A DNA stretch of 64,000 nucleotides from an uncultured archaeon (GTDB lineage Archaea > Asgardarchaeota > Thorarchaeia > Thorarchaeales > Thorarchaeaceae): NCBI GenBank assembly GCA_964458565.1, contig CAYWJO010000005.1:20375-84374 (forward strand), read 5' to 3'. The notes below the pieces were generated by a model, which saw only the letters and a program-made list of their open reading frames with translations, did no database searches and was not told the origin of the DNA. The position numbers and the translations under genes were made by a program. Shown here piece by piece: positions 1,461 through 47,144 of the stretch (its first letter is position 1; each line of letters opens with the position of its first letter).

Positions 1461-1476
1461 TTCGAAAACTCTATAA
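1461..1476 (+). promoter_or_regulatory. BRE/TATA promoter of the 5' tRNA-Thr half
   Basis: TTCGAAAACTCTATAA ends 26 nt before the tRNA start; the identical 16-mer lies 26 nt before the second tRNA-Thr. Confidence 0.7.
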
Positions 1477-1501: not shown

Positions 1502-1563
1502 GCCCCAGTGGCTTAGAGGCTATAGCGGCTGTGATCTTTCGGAGATGCGGTCAAAGCGGCTGA
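1502..1563 (+). tRNA. 5' half of a split tRNA-Thr(UGU), with ~31-nt D-arm intron (about 1524-1554)
   Basis: GCCCCAG-TG-GCTT-AGAGGCTAT[intron]AGC-G-GCTGA; the acceptor strand is perfectly complementary to CTGGGGC at 4752-4758. Confidence 0.8.
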
Positions 1564-1595
1564 GGCCGAAAGTTTAATTCTATTCATTTTCTTGT

Positions 1596-3047
1596 ATGAT
1601 TAGGTCTGAATATACAAGTACACACTCAGGCTGGAATGATGAGTTCATGGTACGAAAGCGTTTACAGATTTTCAAAGATTGGTTTAATCGCAACCTAGGT
1701 ATCTTTTGGTTTTGGGCTACAGTTCAATTGTTCTCTACTTGGTTATTTTGGATAAGTTCTGACTGGGTAGGTATGGATTTTGTATCGAGGGCTGGATTAC
1801 CTGTGATAGTATTTGAGGTGACGACTGCATTTGTCCTCATTATAATATTAGATATCATTCCCCCTAGAATCACCCTTTTCCTTAGAAGATATTTACCAAT
1901 TATTTTTGCACTGCTAATAATTATTCCATTAACAGCAATGTTTGTTTTAGGCACATTTGTTTTATTTGGATATCTGTCTAGCTTGCCTTTGGATTATCCG
2001 GAAGCTCTTGCACTCTCTATTGGGATTACTGTTTTCTCGTCTACTCTGGTAATCTTGAAAGGTGTCTATACATGGAGTAATCTTGAACCAATAGCGCGTT
2101 ATCAGCCAAATTTACATACTTATGTGTGCACTTTCCTTAATGAGAATACACCAATCTTCACAGGTTTCCGTCAAAGGACAATAGAACGTGAAAGTGATTT
2201 ATGGTTGATTAGTTATGATACTAAGAGAGCAGAAACAAATCTTGAGATTTCATTAGGTTCTGTAGTTGCCCTCATTGCTTTATCTCTTTTCTTCAGAATA
2301 TTCAATTTGTCCGGTTTGTGGGACTCAAGATACGCAGATAATGCTCTACTAATGACCGGCTTTTTGACCATTATTACAATATTATATGTTATTGATATTT
2401 TGAACAAGTACAGGAAATGGCGCACTCTTTGGATTGAGTATTGGTCATTTGTTAGAGATGTTACAGCACCTGGATTATTTGTACTCGACTCACTTCCATT
2501 GATGCGAGGTTCACTATATGCGAATATAAAAAGTCGTGCTAATGATGTTCTACAGATACACGCAGAAAAAATAGCATTAAATTATGGGTTTCCGTTTGAT
2601 GATAGTGACAAAGATAATCTAGACTATTTGGAATATCTGTTATGGTATGATCGTGTGTATCATAAACTGAAAGATATCAGTGAAACCTTGTATGATGATT
2701 TTCCGATATTCAAAAAACTGAAAGACGAATTCAATAGATTGAAGAAAGAATTCTACTCGGAAGAATTCGCATCTCTTGTTAGGATGTCATTAATCCTCAA
2801 TTTAGTCAACGTTGCAAACATTATGCCTGATGTTTTTTTGGGAATCTCAGAATTAGCATTATGGGAAACGGATGAAGAAAGTACAAGAATCAACTTATTT
2901 GAGTTTGCCACGAGAGAGTTGGAATTGATTAAAGGTTTGGGATCGATTCCGGTCCCGTCATCTATTGCATGGTTATTAGGTTGCTTTGTATTTGCACTCT
3001 CAATCATACCTTATGCAATTACTGTTGGTATAGCAATCGTTGGATAA
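1596..3047 (+). CDS. Hypothetical multi-pass membrane protein
   Basis: 483-aa ORF with about 7 hydrophobic segments; no family recognised. Confidence 0.7.
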   Translation: MIRSEYTSTHSGWNDEFMVRKRLQIFKDWFNRNLGIFWFWATVQLFSTWLFWISSDWVGMDFVSRAGLPVIVFEVTTAFVLIIILDIIPPRITLFLRRYLPIIFALLIIIPLTAMFVLGTFVLFGYLSSLPLDYPEALALSIGITVFSSTLVILKGVYTWSNLEPIARYQPNLHTYVCTFLNENTPIFTGFRQRTIERESDLWLISYDTKRAETNLEISLGSVVALIALSLFFRIFNLSGLWDSRYADNALLMTGFLTIITILYVIDILNKYRKWRTLWIEYWSFVRDVTAPGLFVLDSLPLMRGSLYANIKSRANDVLQIHAEKIALNYGFPFDDSDKDNLDYLEYLLWYDRVYHKLKDISETLYDDFPIFKKLKDEFNRLKKEFYSEEFASLVRMSLILNLVNVANIMPDVFLGISELALWETDEESTRINLFEFATRELELIKGLGSIPVPSSIAWLLGCFVFALSIIPYAITVGIAIVG

Positions 3048-3092
3048 TAGAAGAAAGAATGAATAAAATATACTAGTCCAAATGTAATGATA

Positions 3093-3232
3093 TGGAGCCC
3101 CGGGCGAGATTTGAACTCGCGATCTCCTGATTTCTTGGAATCAGGAACAGCCGTCCCCTGACATACAAGTCAGGCGCTTCCTAGTCTGTGATAACATAAT
3201 CACAACCTCTTAGACCGCTTAGCTACCGAGGC
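3093..3232 (-). tRNA. tRNA-Thr(UGU) with two introns (D-arm about 3178-3208; canonical 37/38 at 3132-3163)
   Basis: GCCTCGG.../CCGGGGC-T-CCA; CCTGA-CTTGTA^A-TCAGG; T arm GCGAG-TTCAAAT-CTCGC; BHB helix CTTG/CAAG. Confidence 0.9.
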
Positions 3233-3257
3233 ACTTGCAAGCGTCAATCTGAATTGA

Positions 3258-3273
3258 TTATAGAGTTTTCGAA
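3258..3273 (-). promoter_or_regulatory. BRE/TATA promoter of the intact tRNA-Thr
   Basis: Reverse complement reads TTCGAAAACTCTATAA, identical to 1461-1476. Confidence 0.7.
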
Positions 3274-3288
3274 AATGTCATACAATTT

Positions 3289-4167
3289 CTAATCCTCTGG
3301 CTTCTTTATTCGATTCCAGCTAAAACCAAGTTGCTTCATTGTCCAATGGACAGCATTATGACAACGTGTGCAAAGCATTATCCAATCAGCTTGATTTGCA
3401 GTCTTAAGGAAATCTACAGTCCAAGTAGAGTTTCTATGATGTTTTTTACCATCTTTTCTGTGAAGTATTAGTTTGAAATCATCTTTGTGTCGTTTACATA
3501 TATTACATTCATGTCCAAAAATATCGAATCGTAAATCTCGAAGTTCAGCTTTACTAGCACTTGATGGGATAGATCTAACAGTTGTTACTATATCGGGCAA
3601 TTTAGGGGTATATTCATCAAGATTGTGTTTTCTTCTTTTCACTTCTTTGCTTATATGATTCCAATCCATATTAAAAAACTCTGAAAGCCAAGTCACCATG
3701 TGGTGACAACGAGGACATAATGGCGCCCATTCATCTCGTTTCAAGTTTTTCAATTCTTCAGGATGCCATAATTTCTTTGAACTATGAGGCTCACCATCTT
3801 TCCTGTGAATTGCTAAGATTCCACCCGAACAGTCTTTATTACAGATTCTACACTCTTTCCCAAAAAGCTGATCCCGGATTTTCTTTGCTTCTCTCCTCTG
3901 TAGATTACTTCCGTGGGTTGAATTGGTAAGACTTTCGAGAAGTGTTTCTTTTGTTTCATTTTGAAGAATTTGTTTCAGGTCATTGAGAACAATTTCAACC
4001 CGTTTTGATGACACACCAAGTTTCCTAGCAATATCCATGGGCGATAATTTATCCTCGTAAAACATGCGATATATTTTTGAAACATACAAAAATGATGAAG
4101 ACTGTTCCAGAACCACAGACAGTTGATGGAGCACTTGAGGGACTGATATCGTATTTTCTATACACAC
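3289..4167 (-). CDS. HTH + tandem Zn-binding HNH-like endonuclease domain protein
   Basis: HTH-like LSPMDIARKLGVSSKRV; two repeats of FGxECxxC...HRKDG..H...W..LCxRCH; true start may be downstream of 4167. Confidence 0.65.
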   Translation of the reverse strand: MCIENTISVPQVLHQLSVVLEQSSSFLYVSKIYRMFYEDKLSPMDIARKLGVSSKRVEIVLNDLKQILQNETKETLLESLTNSTHGSNLQRREAKKIRDQLFGKECRICNKDCSGGILAIHRKDGEPHSSKKLWHPEELKNLKRDEWAPLCPRCHHMVTWLSEFFNMDWNHISKEVKRRKHNLDEYTPKLPDIVTTVRSIPSSASKAELRDLRFDIFGHECNICKRHKDDFKLILHRKDGKKHHRNSTWTVDFLKTANQADWIMLCTRCHNAVHWTMKQLGFSWNRIKKPED

Positions 4168-4211
4168 TAGGAAAAGCAGCTATTGATGAATTGTTCGGAG
4201 GTGAGAGATGA

Positions 4212-4637
4212 ATGATACCTAAAGGTATTTCCCCACATAAAGAAGTCAGTATACCAAAATGGAAATTACCTTTTCTGCCTAAAGAATATAAAAGAACAGA
4301 TTTGGGAGATCAAAAAGGTGCGATAGCTCAGTATAGAGGCCCAAACAATGTTCATGTTCTAGAATATGAAAATGAATGGAGAGTTCATTGGGATTTTGGA
4401 GATCCAAGAACACCTGATGGGTTGTTAGTTCATGTATTTGCTGATGCTCCCGAAGTAGGTTTCTCATTATTAGCAGCGGTTTCAGCTGGGAAGAGAACAT
4501 ACGATGAAACTCAATCTGTTGGTGATGCTATTGTAGACGCAGCTGCAACAGGACTTTCAGTGTATGCAGGTGTCAAGTTAACAAAAGCGATAATCTCGTG
4601 GCTTTCTGATATGTTTTCAAAGAACTCTAAAATTTGA
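4212..4637 (+). CDS. Hypothetical protein
   Basis: 141 aa, GGAGGTGA RBS; QYR...HVLEY...VHWDFGDP...H...D motif and a hydrophobic C-terminus. Confidence 0.7.
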   Translation: MIPKGISPHKEVSIPKWKLPFLPKEYKRTDLGDQKGAIAQYRGPNNVHVLEYENEWRVHWDFGDPRTPDGLLVHVFADAPEVGFSLLAAVSAGKRTYDETQSVGDAIVDAAATGLSVYAGVKLTKAIISWLSDMFSKNSKI

Positions 4638-4681
4638 TAGTTCGTATGTTGAGTAAAATGATTGGTCTTTATACAAAGGAT

Positions 4682-4762
4682 GCTGACTTGTAATCAGCAG
4701 GTCGCGAGACTTCATGCACTTTGTGACATGAAGCGTGAATTCAATTCTCGCCTGGGGCTCCA
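4682..4762 (+). tRNA. 3' part of the split tRNA-Thr(UGU), with 31-nt intron at 53/54 (4709-4739)
   Basis: GCTGA-CTTGTAA-TCAGC-AGGTC-GCGAG[intron]TTCAATT-CTCGC-CTGGGGC-T-CCA; BHB helix CGCG/CGTG with AG^A and AA^T bulges. Confidence 0.85.
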
Positions 4763-4830
4763 TTCATATTTCATTCGGATTCTTTGTCTATTACAAAAAT
4801 GCTATAGAGAGGTTTGCTTAGAGTAGCGAT

Positions 4831-5100
4831 ATGTCTGCTAGAGGTTCTTTTACAATCGAAGAGGCTAAGGAAGTAGGGAAGAAACTGGATATCAAATGGG
4901 ATAGGTTTGATGTGGAACAATTCAGAATGGGGATGAACGTTGAACTTGAACATGGTATAAGGGATACCCATACCAATGTCACTAATGATGATTCATTGAT
5001 GACAGGTAAGATTGCGTTAGCTCATCTCAATGAGTTCCCTGATTATTATGATAGACTTGACAAGCTTGAAGAAGAAGCAAAGATTTTCTGGAATAAATAG
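4831..5100 (+). CDS. DUF5661 family protein
   Basis: MGMNVELEHG...KIALAHLNEFPDYYDRL signature. Confidence 0.8.
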   Translation: MSARGSFTIEEAKEVGKKLDIKWDRFDVEQFRMGMNVELEHGIRDTHTNVTNDDSLMTGKIALAHLNEFPDYYDRLDKLEEEAKIFWNK

Positions 5101-5228
5101 ATGTGATATTCATCCTAGAGATTTCATGAATTAGATATACGATTTCGCCACCTCTTCTTCTAATTACTAGTTCATATAATCGATTGTATCAATTGTAATA
5201 CACTTGTTGGTTCCGTAGAACCACTCAT

Positions 5229-5528
5229 TTACAACCACAGAAAAATGACAAAAGCGTAGATATAGAATGATAGGAGAAGTCCAATCACTCCTGCAGCTTG
5301 GAATAATCGTTTTTGTGTCTTATGATGAAATCTAAACATACCTGCAAAGAAACCAATGGCTCCTCCTATGAAACATAGGAGTAATAGTGTGGCTTCAGAA
5401 ACCCTCCAGTCATTCAATCGTGCTTTTCGTTTATCCCACAACATCATCGAGAAAGCAATCAGATTGATTATTGTCAAGTAGATTGTTAATAGAATTGGTA
5501 TGATATTACTTGGAATCATAGGTTGCAT
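5229..5528 (-). CDS. DUF1294 family membrane protein
   Basis: DKRKA...WRVSEATL...GG..G....FHHKT signature. Confidence 0.85.
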   Translation of the reverse strand: MQPMIPSNIIPILLTIYLTIINLIAFSMMLWDKRKARLNDWRVSEATLLLLCFIGGAIGFFAGMFRFHHKTQKRLFQAAGVIGLLLSFYIYAFVIFLWL

Positions 5529-6740
5529 CTATGCATCCATCCTCTTTGCAGCAACTTCAAGAGCTGCAACCAAATCGAGCGTTTTTCCAGTCAGAAAATT
5601 AATGGTTGCCCCACCACCCGTGCTGATATGAGTGATTTGGTCAGCAAGACCACTCTTTAGAGCCATTGAGCCCATATGCCCACCACCTACTACTGTAATT
5701 CCATCACAAGATGCAATAGCATCAAGTATGCGTTCTGTTCCAAGAGCAAACGATTCCTTCTCAAAGAATCCCATGGGTCCATTTGCGAATACAACAGCAG
5801 AATTTCGTATAATCTTGACATAGGTTTCTATGGTTCCAGCTCCAATATCGAAGAAAGGATCTCCATTCATATCATCAAAACCACATTCCACACGCATTCC
5901 ATCTCTCTCAACGGCGGCATCTTCAGGTAGAATGATGGTTTCCTCATAGTCTTTCAATAACTCCCGTGCAGTATGTACTGCCTCTTCATATCCTTTGATA
6001 GGTTTCGAATACGACTCGTGGATTAATCCTTGAGCGATGAGAAATAATGTGCCAATCAGGCCTCCAAGCAATGCATTGTCTACTCTATTAGCCTCCAGTA
6101 GCTTTTGAAGTGTCTTCACCTTGTCCTCTACCTTTGCCCCACCAAGTACAAGAGTCCAAGGATGGCGATCTGTTGCAGTAGCATCTGTTAGAGTGCGGAT
6201 TTCCTTTTCTACCAATCGGCCAGCTACTGAGGGTAGAACTGTTGTGAATCCAACAATGGAAGCCTGTGATCGATGTGCTGCACCAAATGCATCATTCACA
6301 AAAAGATCAAACAATGGATAGAGCTCTTGGACGATTGGTTCTTTAGCTACCTCTTGTGGTGGAGCTTTCTTGAGTTCACCATCAAAATAACGAACATTTT
6401 GTAATACTAAGACCTCACCAATTTCAAGTTTTTCAATTGCTCTTTTTGCAACATCCCCAAAGATATCATTAACAAAATGCGCATTGATACCTAATTTTTT
6501 TAGAATTTCAGTATGAGGCTCGAGTGAAATGAAATCGTTGCTTCCGGGACTACCTTGATGAGCCATCAATACAACTTTACTTGAAGATAGCTCATTCAGA
6601 GTTGGAATTGATGCTACTATCCGGGAGTCATCCAGTATCTCTTTTGTATCGGGGTCTACGGAACAGTTGATATCCACTCGAATCAACACCCTCTTTCCAG
6701 TATATTCGACATCATCTAAAGTCTTGAAAGGTAACTTCAT
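5529..6740 (-). CDS. pgk: Phosphoglycerate kinase
   Basis: RVDIN, NDAFGAAHR, LGGAKVEDK, NGPMGFFE and HISTGGGA motifs. Confidence 0.97.
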   Translation of the reverse strand: MKLPFKTLDDVEYTGKRVLIRVDINCSVDPDTKEILDDSRIVASIPTLNELSSSKVVLMAHQGSPGSNDFISLEPHTEILKKLGINAHFVNDIFGDVAKRAIEKLEIGEVLVLQNVRYFDGELKKAPPQEVAKEPIVQELYPLFDLFVNDAFGAAHRSQASIVGFTTVLPSVAGRLVEKEIRTLTDATATDRHPWTLVLGGAKVEDKVKTLQKLLEANRVDNALLGGLIGTLFLIAQGLIHESYSKPIKGYEEAVHTARELLKDYEETIILPEDAAVERDGMRVECGFDDMNGDPFFDIGAGTIETYVKIIRNSAVVFANGPMGFFEKESFALGTERILDAIASCDGITVVGGGHMGSMALKSGLADQITHISTGGGATINFLTGKTLDLVAALEVAAKRMDA

Positions 6741-47034: not shown

Positions 47035-47144
47035 TGGTGCTCCGGCCGGGATTCGAACCCGGGTCGAGGAATCGAGAGTCCCTCATGCTGGGCCGGACTA
47101 CATTCGGCTATCAAACACAAATATTGCTTGATTTCTACCGGAGC
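47035..47144 (-). tRNA. tRNA-Glu(CUC) with 32-nt intron at 10/11 (47103-47134)
   Basis: GCTCCGG/CCGGAGC-A-CCA; AGGGA-CTCTCGA-TTCCT; BHB helix CGGT/GCCG with AG^A and AA^T bulges. Confidence 0.88.

Follow-up and report, generated by a model that had tools for sequence, protein, structure and literature searches.

We found that a resident gene for tRNA-Thr(UGU), the threonine tRNA with the anticodon UGU, is split into two halves in an uncultured archaeon of the Thorarchaeaceae by a 3,118-bp insert. This insert carries a second, complete tRNA-Thr(UGU) and, beside it, a gene for a predicted HNH-type nuclease with two tandem modules (open reading frame ORF292). The locus lies near the start of the window, the 64,000-nucleotide stretch of DNA analysed here (contig CAYWJO010000005.1 of assembly GCA_964458565.1, positions 20,375 to 84,374; G000:C5:20375-84374, where G and L numbers are our own handles for genomes, contigs, and loci). 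In related genomes, genes of the same nuclease family stand beside at least ten kinds of tRNA genes, often together with fragments of the same tRNA. Our preferred reading, to which we give a probability of roughly 0.6, is that the resident gene was broken and replaced by a free-standing cassette of homing endonuclease and tRNA.

The 5' half of the resident gene, hereafter tRNA-A, occupies 1502-1563 on the forward strand and supplies tRNA positions 1-31 in two exons (1502-1525 and 1557-1563) around a 31-nt intron (1526-1556) at about position 24/25. The 3' half (4682-4762, same strand) supplies positions 27-76, also in two exons, 4682-4708 and 4740-4762; between them, at position 53/54 in the T arm, is a 31-nt intron (4709-4739). 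It begins with GCTGA, which is followed by the anticodon loop CTTGTAA, the variable region, the T arm, and an encoded CCA. The same pentamer, the 5' strand of the anticodon stem, ends the 5' half, and the insert is edged by these two direct copies (1559-1563 and 4682-4686). Joining 1502-1525, 1557-1563, 4687-4708, and 4740-4762 gives a 76-nt tRNA-Thr(UGU) that folds with acceptor, anticodon, and T arms, encodes CCA, and equals the intact ortholog; after in silico splicing its junction reads ...AGCGGCTGACTTGTAATCAGC. An earlier interpretation made from the letters of the window alone (the sequence-only reading) had joined the halves at the shared GCTGA and removed two 31-nt introns to arrive at the same 76-nt tRNA, and the comparison with relatives bears this out.

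The gene order of this locus in the family is up226(-), LOR(+), tRNA-Thr(UGU)(+), DUF1294(-), and PGK(-). The orthologous tRNA gene is intact and intronless in G005 (L012:3236-3311) and uninterrupted with one intron at the same 24/25 site in G020, and in both genomes it lies directly 3' of LOR. The split tRNA is not a numerological coincidence, since the same gene stands unbroken at the corresponding place in relatives. The halves are contiguous in these two genomes and the insert (1564-4681) is absent from the orthologous locus, so related genomes provide the empty site; no empty-site contig of the same strain was seen among the contigs of other samples. Compared with their orthologs the halves and the 5' promoter show no decay, as the sequence-only reading had supposed: residues 1-24 of the 5' half are 100% identical to G020 and G022, its intron is homologous to the introns of G020 and L034, and 4682-4708 is 100% identical to the intact genes of relatives in seven genera. 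The native promoter, TTCGAAAACTCTATAA (1461-1476, forward strand), is a 16-mer with only two copies in the genome. The motif CGAAAACTCTATAAT is kept upstream of the orthologous tRNA in G020, G005, G008, and G007, and this promoter sits after the LOR stop codon in the window, as in G005 and G020.

The source assembly has 3.73 Mb and 41% GC and is 93% complete, and host DNA is present in several salt-marsh metagenomes. The assembly is metagenome-derived with 5% contamination, and the same sample contains a related organism whose A gene is intact, two points that would allow for an assembly chimera of two strains. However, separately assembled contigs from other samples span both junctions without a single difference. 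The left junction is bridged by an independent-sample Logan contig (900-1938) and the right by two such contigs (one covering 4574-5600). Misassembly is excluded as far as these data reach, and we consider a chimera extremely improbable. Nor does either half have a better partner elsewhere, as each is single copy in the 93%-complete assembly.

The complete tRNA-Thr(UGU) of the insert, tRNA-B, lies on the opposite strand (3093-3232), where the sequence-only reading had correctly placed a different intact tRNA-Thr(UGU). It has two introns, one in the D arm (3179-3209) and one at position 37/38 (3132-3163), a mature length of 77 nt, and its own promoter on the reverse strand (3258-3273), which is the second copy of the 16-mer TTCGAAAACTCTATAA. 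It is the only complete Thr(UGU) gene that we found in the assembly. The stretch 3089-4065 (approximately 1 kb) is a discrete unit made up of the nuclease gene, the promoter, and the complete tRNA-Thr(UGU). The sister genome L031 has an inverted cassette at the native site but neither the halves nor the two other ORFs of the insert (ORF483 and ORF141), and its homology to the window insert is limited to 3089-4047. Between the window and L031, identity is 78% for the cassette (nucleotides), 68% for ORF292 (amino acids), 84% for PGK (amino acids), and 79% for LOR.

Of the 76 exon positions, about 12 differ between mature A and B, and the introns of the two genes differ as well. Taken together with its promoter, tRNA-B shares 82-86% identity with the native LOR-locus gene of G008 and G007, which belong to other genera. 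We therefore take tRNA-B to be an ortholog from a different lineage and not a recent duplicate. This comparison bears on the proposal that no mobile element was involved and that the tRNA locus was duplicated in situ, then rearranged by inversion and gene shuffling. Such a history would agree with the orthologous 16-bp promoter shared by both copies and with the inverted cassette at the native position in L031. However, A and B are each closest to native genes of different genera, and there is no local source for ORF483 and ORF141; duplication in situ is very unlikely.

ORF292 is encoded on the reverse strand (3289-4065) directly upstream of tRNA-B. The longest frame extends to 4167, and the likely start, M35, gives a product of 258 amino acids with one helix-turn-helix (HTH) domain and two tandem HNH/zinc modules. 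The module comprises approximately 60 residues of the form FGxxCxxC...(I/L)HRKDGxxH...W..LCxxCHxxVHW, and its CxxC..H..CxxCH signature (the four Cys and the His residues) is invariant in both copies (7 and 40 family sequences). All significant PHROG matches are to HNH endonuclease families and cover both modules, with E-values of 7e-6 for ORF292 and down to 1e-12 for its relatives. An AlphaFold2 model (predicted local distance difference test score 81) gave weak fold matches, which for the modules were mostly HNH nucleases (Cap5, McrA, Cas9, and PacI) and for the N-terminus HTH regulators; a sequence search of the PDB returned nothing significant. We treat ORF292 as a predicted nuclease of the HNH type and as the candidate mobility enzyme of the insert; its two active-site modules would be well suited to cutting both DNA strands. 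In this respect the picture drawn from the letters alone, of an island with no integrase, needs correcting.

A profile search with the double module identified 514 proteins among 1.84 billion representatives, 51 of them at E <= 1e-30, compared to only five relatives recovered by a word-index protein search; the family is therefore rare but not tiny. The N-termini of its members are arrays of one to six or more HTH repeats, and these repeats are the only additional domains. Among 400 genomes sampled from the phylum, the family occurs in 28 of the 85 that belong to the window's own family and in none of the 315 from other families, with up to six copies per genome. It is lineage-restricted, patchy, and multicopy. 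Cluster names of family members contained no taxa beyond Thorarchaeota and Sifarchaeia, a pattern scan of genome contigs, whose reach did not extend to Caldiarchaeum, returned four loci, all from Thorarchaeota, and phage and plasmid collections searched with tblastn had no match. IMG/VR contains one single-module match (34% identity) on a 102-kb viral contig (L092:3001-3234).

The nuclease genes are linked to tRNA genes across the family. At 21 of 29 family loci in relatives, a tRNA gene lies within 300 nt of the nuclease ORF, and the chance expectation is about 2% by our own estimate from approximately 45 tRNA genes per 3.7 Mb. These tRNAs were located with Rfam complemented by a T-arm/acceptor heuristic for multi-intron tRNAs, on which Rfam is weak (tRNA-B scores 21 bits, and the genes of G022 and G002 are missed). 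With anticodons read by eye, the linked tRNAs are of at least ten kinds and include Thr (UGU and GGU), Lys (UUU), Val (UAC and GAC), Leu (CAG and GAG), Ser (UGA and CGA), Asp (GUC), and Glu (UUC). Three arrangements recur, in which the tRNA is downstream of the nuclease gene on the same strand with a promoter between them, convergent with it 10-30 nt past its stop codon, or just upstream of it. The LOR-tRNA-PGK locus itself has a nuclease gene in the window, L031, G022, G002, G058/L034, and G085 and none in G005, G020, G008, G007, G003, and others. In a tree of the modules, all six tRNA-Thr(UGU)-linked nucleases form one clade (100/100), within which G058 (genus g6) and G002 (g3) group at 97/91, apart from G085 (g3), a topology that appears to be at odds with the genera.

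Not every family copy is linked to a tRNA. The members at L036:6001-7056 and L055:3001-4218 belong to different genomes and are located beside PhoU-phosphoglucomutase genes with no directly adjacent tRNA; the L055 member has a tRNA-Leu on the opposite strand at a distance of 500 nt. At L041:3329-5470, in another Thorarchaeota genome, the family is represented by two adjacent genes, which encode a 324-aa HTH array and a 207-aa double-HNH protein. Next comes a tRNA-Lys(UUU) with several introns, and rpoB begins shortly after it.

At least nine loci have a truncated copy of the adjoining tRNA on the far side of the nuclease gene. In L034, L060, and L091, the native promoter and tRNA-Thr positions 1-28 are followed by 1.1 kb with the nuclease gene only, a new promoter, and a complete tRNA-Thr with the 24/25 intron; in G022, positions 1-24 of tRNA-Thr precede a 719-aa nuclease and a complete B-type gene. 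Other tRNAs show the same layout. L070 has tRNA-Val(UAC) positions 1-53 from an intronless allele, the nuclease, and an inverted complete copy with a 45/46 intron, and L086 has tRNA-Leu(CAG) positions 1-33 and a complete copy with a 30/31 intron. The fragment is an inverted 5' piece in L066 and a 3' piece of 16-27 nt in L064, L067, and L085. In the minimal cases (L034, G022, and L070), the nuclease gene is the sole ORF between fragment and complete tRNA. Fragment, nuclease gene, and complete tRNA thus form a layout that recurs, of which the window is one instance. It stands out in four ways: a whole tRNA gene was brought in, the cassette is inverted, two extra ORFs are present, and both target halves are left.

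The fragments also relate to the introns. In L034, L070, and L086 the complete, linked copy carries an intron a few nucleotides from the break, and the broken allele represented by the fragment has none there; introns may confer resistance. Genus g6 has an intronless gene without nuclease (G005), an intron together with nuclease and scar (G058), and an intron without nuclease (G020). From their anatomy, these genomes would represent all three states of a homing cycle, in parallel to collaborative homing. In the window, L034, and G022, the promoter and the 5' fragment are retained, each time directly upstream of an ORF, which suggests that they now drive the downstream ORF.

Cleavage by ORF292, its cut site, protection by introns, and the route of repair are inferred from comparison of these loci, as follows. 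ORF292 would cut tRNA-Thr(UGU) alleles with an uninterrupted anticodon arm. The anticodon arm of tRNA-A is uninterrupted and tRNA-B carries a swapped 27-43 pair in addition to the 37/38 intron; this intron and the stem differences would protect the linked B allele, which would supply the essential tRNA once the target is lost. By the usual route in relatives, one end of the break would be repaired on the donor allele by homology and the other joined illegitimately, leaving a tRNA fragment. Where neither end finds homology, a donor fragment may be captured whole in either orientation. The window would be such a case, in which the break fell within the anticodon stem of resident tRNA-Thr(UGU), on its 5' strand, and 3.1 kb of foreign DNA was captured. 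Both ends would have been joined to the inverted incoming fragment, with both halves surviving, and fill-in of a 5-nt stagger would have produced GCTGA at both ends. The halves are then most likely recent, non-functional remnants.

The remainder of the insert consists largely of two accessory genes. ORF483 (1596-3047, forward strand) encodes a hydrophobic protein without family or Pfam match and starts 33 nt past the 5' half; it is probably now transcribed from the resident tRNA promoter with the 5' half as its leader. Its homologs are limited to a weak one in one of the 85 family genomes and one at 39% identity among 5.8 billion proteins. The latter is encoded on a 3.8-kb contig (L057), preceded by three direct repeats of approximately 45 nt (ACAnATnAGTGGAAGG...; L057:1-200) and followed by a reverse-transcriptase gene. 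ORF141 (4212-4637, forward strand) has no known function and no Pfam match, and it is patchy, occurring in 10 of the 85 family genomes and always at other loci. Neither tRNA fragments nor HNH genes were found in the contexts of ORF141 and ORF483 homologs that we examined.

These genes are one reason to consider that the insert came by a decayed integrative element, a transposon, or illegitimate recombination at an insertion hotspot, with the HNH gene as a passenger or a regulator of the adjoining tRNA gene. Unrelated genes separate LOR and the tRNA in G017, the window has an extra DUF5661 gene, duplications of 5 bp are common among many transposons, and a direct repeat near both insert ends (ATGATT(A)GGTCT..ATACAA) has a p of about 0.03, which is too weak to build on. 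However, a domain search of ORF483, ORF292, and ORF141 found no tyrosine or serine recombinase, integrase, or transposase, and no terminal inverted repeats of the insert were found, in agreement with the sequence-only reading, which had noted the lack of an integrase and of terminal repeats. There is no att-type restoration either: only GCTGA is duplicated, and neither border restores the tRNA gene. The insert does not differ from its surroundings in base composition or in GC content at third codon positions. A passenger role for the HNH gene also fits poorly with its being the sole ORF between fragment and complete tRNA in L034, G022, and L070 and with an association that spans at least ten tRNA identities. 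We regard this origin as unlikely, though deserving of real weight.

Alternatively, the halves could still work together as a split tRNA gene, through trans-splicing of the Nanoarchaeum type or through removal of a 3.1-kb gene-bearing intron, and the organism would have two working Thr(UGU) genes. The undecayed state of the halves, their introns, and the 5' promoter speaks for this, and if the cassette was inherited from an ancestor shared with L031, the halves would be old remnants whose preservation would imply selection. However, pairing between the putative trailer and leader (RNAduplex, -28.5 kcal/mol) is no stronger than in shuffled sequences (-29.2 +/- 4.3; p = 0.54), cofolding gave no helix abutting the junction, and no bulge-helix-bulge (BHB) motif can be drawn across it. 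The 3' half lacks the conserved promoter motif; the only candidate, a TTTATA 9 nt upstream, leaves too little distance for a full 3' half to be transcribed from it, and a single transcript would have to cross ORF292 and tRNA-B in antisense. The window has an intact tRNA-Thr(UGU) at 3093-3232, and the closest relative, L031, has the cassette but not the halves. A functional split gene is improbable on these grounds. The sequence-only reading had left two options open; disruption and replacement with a 5-bp duplication gains from the 21 of 29 tRNA-linked loci and the scars, and the giant intron or trans-spliced tRNA is left without support by the duplex statistics, the missing BHB motif, and the intact tRNA-Thr(UGU).

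Several observations weigh against the homing-endonuclease/tRNA cassette. The Pfam HNH family (PF01844) is matched only below cut-off (E 0.04-0.9), the fold matches are weak (Foldseek E 0.1 or worse, Z at most 3.9), and the family loci, drawn as they are from related genomes, lack full independence. In classical homing the orientation is kept and no duplication arises, with which an inverted insert bearing two accessory ORFs fits poorly; an extra end-joining step is therefore needed, and we know of no documentation of such a step for these archaea. The broken A allele already has the 24/25 intron a few nucleotides from the break, and an intron shield therefore requires a nuclease that reads mainly the anticodon arm. 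Finally, the divergence of the cassette from that of L031 (78% nucleotide identity) is like that between the two genomes; the cassette may thus be old in this lineage, which fits poorly with undecayed halves unless a different donor delivered it recently.

Among known cases, the tRNA-Thr(GGU) locus of Caldiarchaeum subterraneum comes closest; there a 5' fragment (positions 1-27) with its upstream region is followed by a 1.87-kb insert beside a complete tRNA-Thr that gained a 24/25 intron (Sugahara et al. 2012, PMC3293823). That insert has one 813-bp ORF next to this complete tRNA and on its strand, which encodes a putative DNA-binding/recombination protein of approximately 270 aa with seven paralogs, one copy being beside tRNA-Thr(CGU); a machine-learning classifier labelled the protein a recombinase, and pNOB8-type integration was proposed (PMC3293823). 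The architecture is the same as in L034, L060, G022, and the core of the window. Caldiarchaeum belongs to a different phylum, however, and the window protein is a tandem HNH nuclease; the likeness between the two cases is one of layout. The window further differs in that its cassette is inverted, a whole tRNA gene is carried, and both target halves are left. Integrase elements of the SSV and pNOB8 types resemble the window in their tRNA target and in partial tRNA copies at their borders, whereas the window has no integrase, a duplication of only 5 bp, a junction that restores nothing, and a whole substitute gene.

Split tRNA genes are known in Nanoarchaeum equitans, Caldivirga maquilingensis, and Staphylothermus (PMC3218864; reviewed in PMC4033280), and as in the window two pieces add up to one tRNA and are parted in the region of the anticodon arm. 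The known genes have GC-rich complementary trailers and leaders that form the splice motif, separate promoters, and no intact copy. The window has no such complementarity, its 3' half has no promoter that we could recognise, and an intact copy is present. Collaborative homing has been described for phage group I introns (PMC3984707), and SegB is described as a tRNA-region homing enzyme (PMC13096335). In the phage systems too, the nuclease gene lies outside the intron beside a conserved target gene, the target site is the intron insertion site, and the intron allele is immune and co-inherited with the nuclease gene. Those systems involve bacterial viruses, self-splicing group I introns, and GIY-YIG or single-HNH enzymes, whereas ours involves an archaeal chromosome, protein-spliced BHB-type introns, double-HNH proteins with HTH arrays, and tRNA-fragment scars. 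We found no paper that links HNH nucleases to tRNA genes or tRNA introns of archaea. The window element belongs to a known kind, that of free-standing homing endonucleases or tRNA-disrupting elements, and its novelty lies in the enzyme family, in the host group, and in the proposed immunity element.

The surroundings of the tRNA-A locus have further features. Directly 3' of the 3' half is a DUF5661 gene (4831-5100), which is absent at the orthologous locus in all family relatives examined and has its best DNA match (74%) in G035, from another family of the phylum, pointing to a further accessory insertion at a hotspot. In G017 (L016:840-2075), a 411-aa transporter-like gene is located on the opposite strand between LOR and tRNA-Thr, which indicates that the site accepts insertions. 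Palindromes similar to TGTATTACA recur 30-60 nt 3' of tRNA-Thr in several genera (L011, L012, L013, L015, and L020), in the window at approximately 4786-4795, and an array of TGTATTACA-like motifs elsewhere in the window was noted in the sequence-only reading. Tandem repeats of approximately 30 nt are found before the window (G000:C5:20131-20268) and at its positions 1-49; these 49 bases are matched, with 90-100% identity, at four staggered sites further upstream and are part of a Gly/Pro-repeat coding region.

Other tRNA genes of the source genome commonly have one to three introns at non-canonical positions, because of which ARAGORN and Rfam perform poorly on the tRNAs of this host. ARAGORN found no tRNAs in the window under default settings and, with introns allowed, called tRNA-B an Asn tRNA. 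Its long-intron calls for Asp (2,389 nt) and Met (457 nt) lie inside coding sequence and were rejected, as was a Phe call (291-nt intron), which is really an intron-bearing tRNA-Glu(CUC). The latter gene (47035-47104, reverse strand) has an intron of approximately 31 nt right after position 9, and Rfam matches only its positions 9-63. With these artefacts explained, there is no sign of further split genes.

The origin of unusual archaeal tRNA introns and split tRNA genes has been debated for two decades, and a widely discussed idea is that gene disruption shields against integrating elements. To our knowledge there is only one population-genomic example so far, that of Caldiarchaeum, and its enzyme was never identified. 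The window and its relatives, from an Asgard group and thus from the archaea closest to eukaryotes, supply a concrete agent in the form of an HTH-array/double-HNH family located beside at least ten kinds of tRNA genes. We tentatively suggest, as a possibility about which we remain doubtful, that an arms race with tandem-HNH homing endonucleases specific for tRNA genes has left behind, as by-products, non-canonical tRNA introns and split or fragmented tRNA genes. Through an intron in the nuclease site an allele would become immune and spread along with the nuclease gene, in a BHB-intron version of collaborative homing, and imperfect repair would leave tRNA halves from which split genes could later be built. 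The enzymes may also serve as nucleases with long sites that are programmable by module. If intron-less alleles are indeed cut and intron-bearing alleles spared, this would be the first homing in which protein-spliced introns are the immunity element, and it would provide a mechanism for both intron gain and gene fragmentation.

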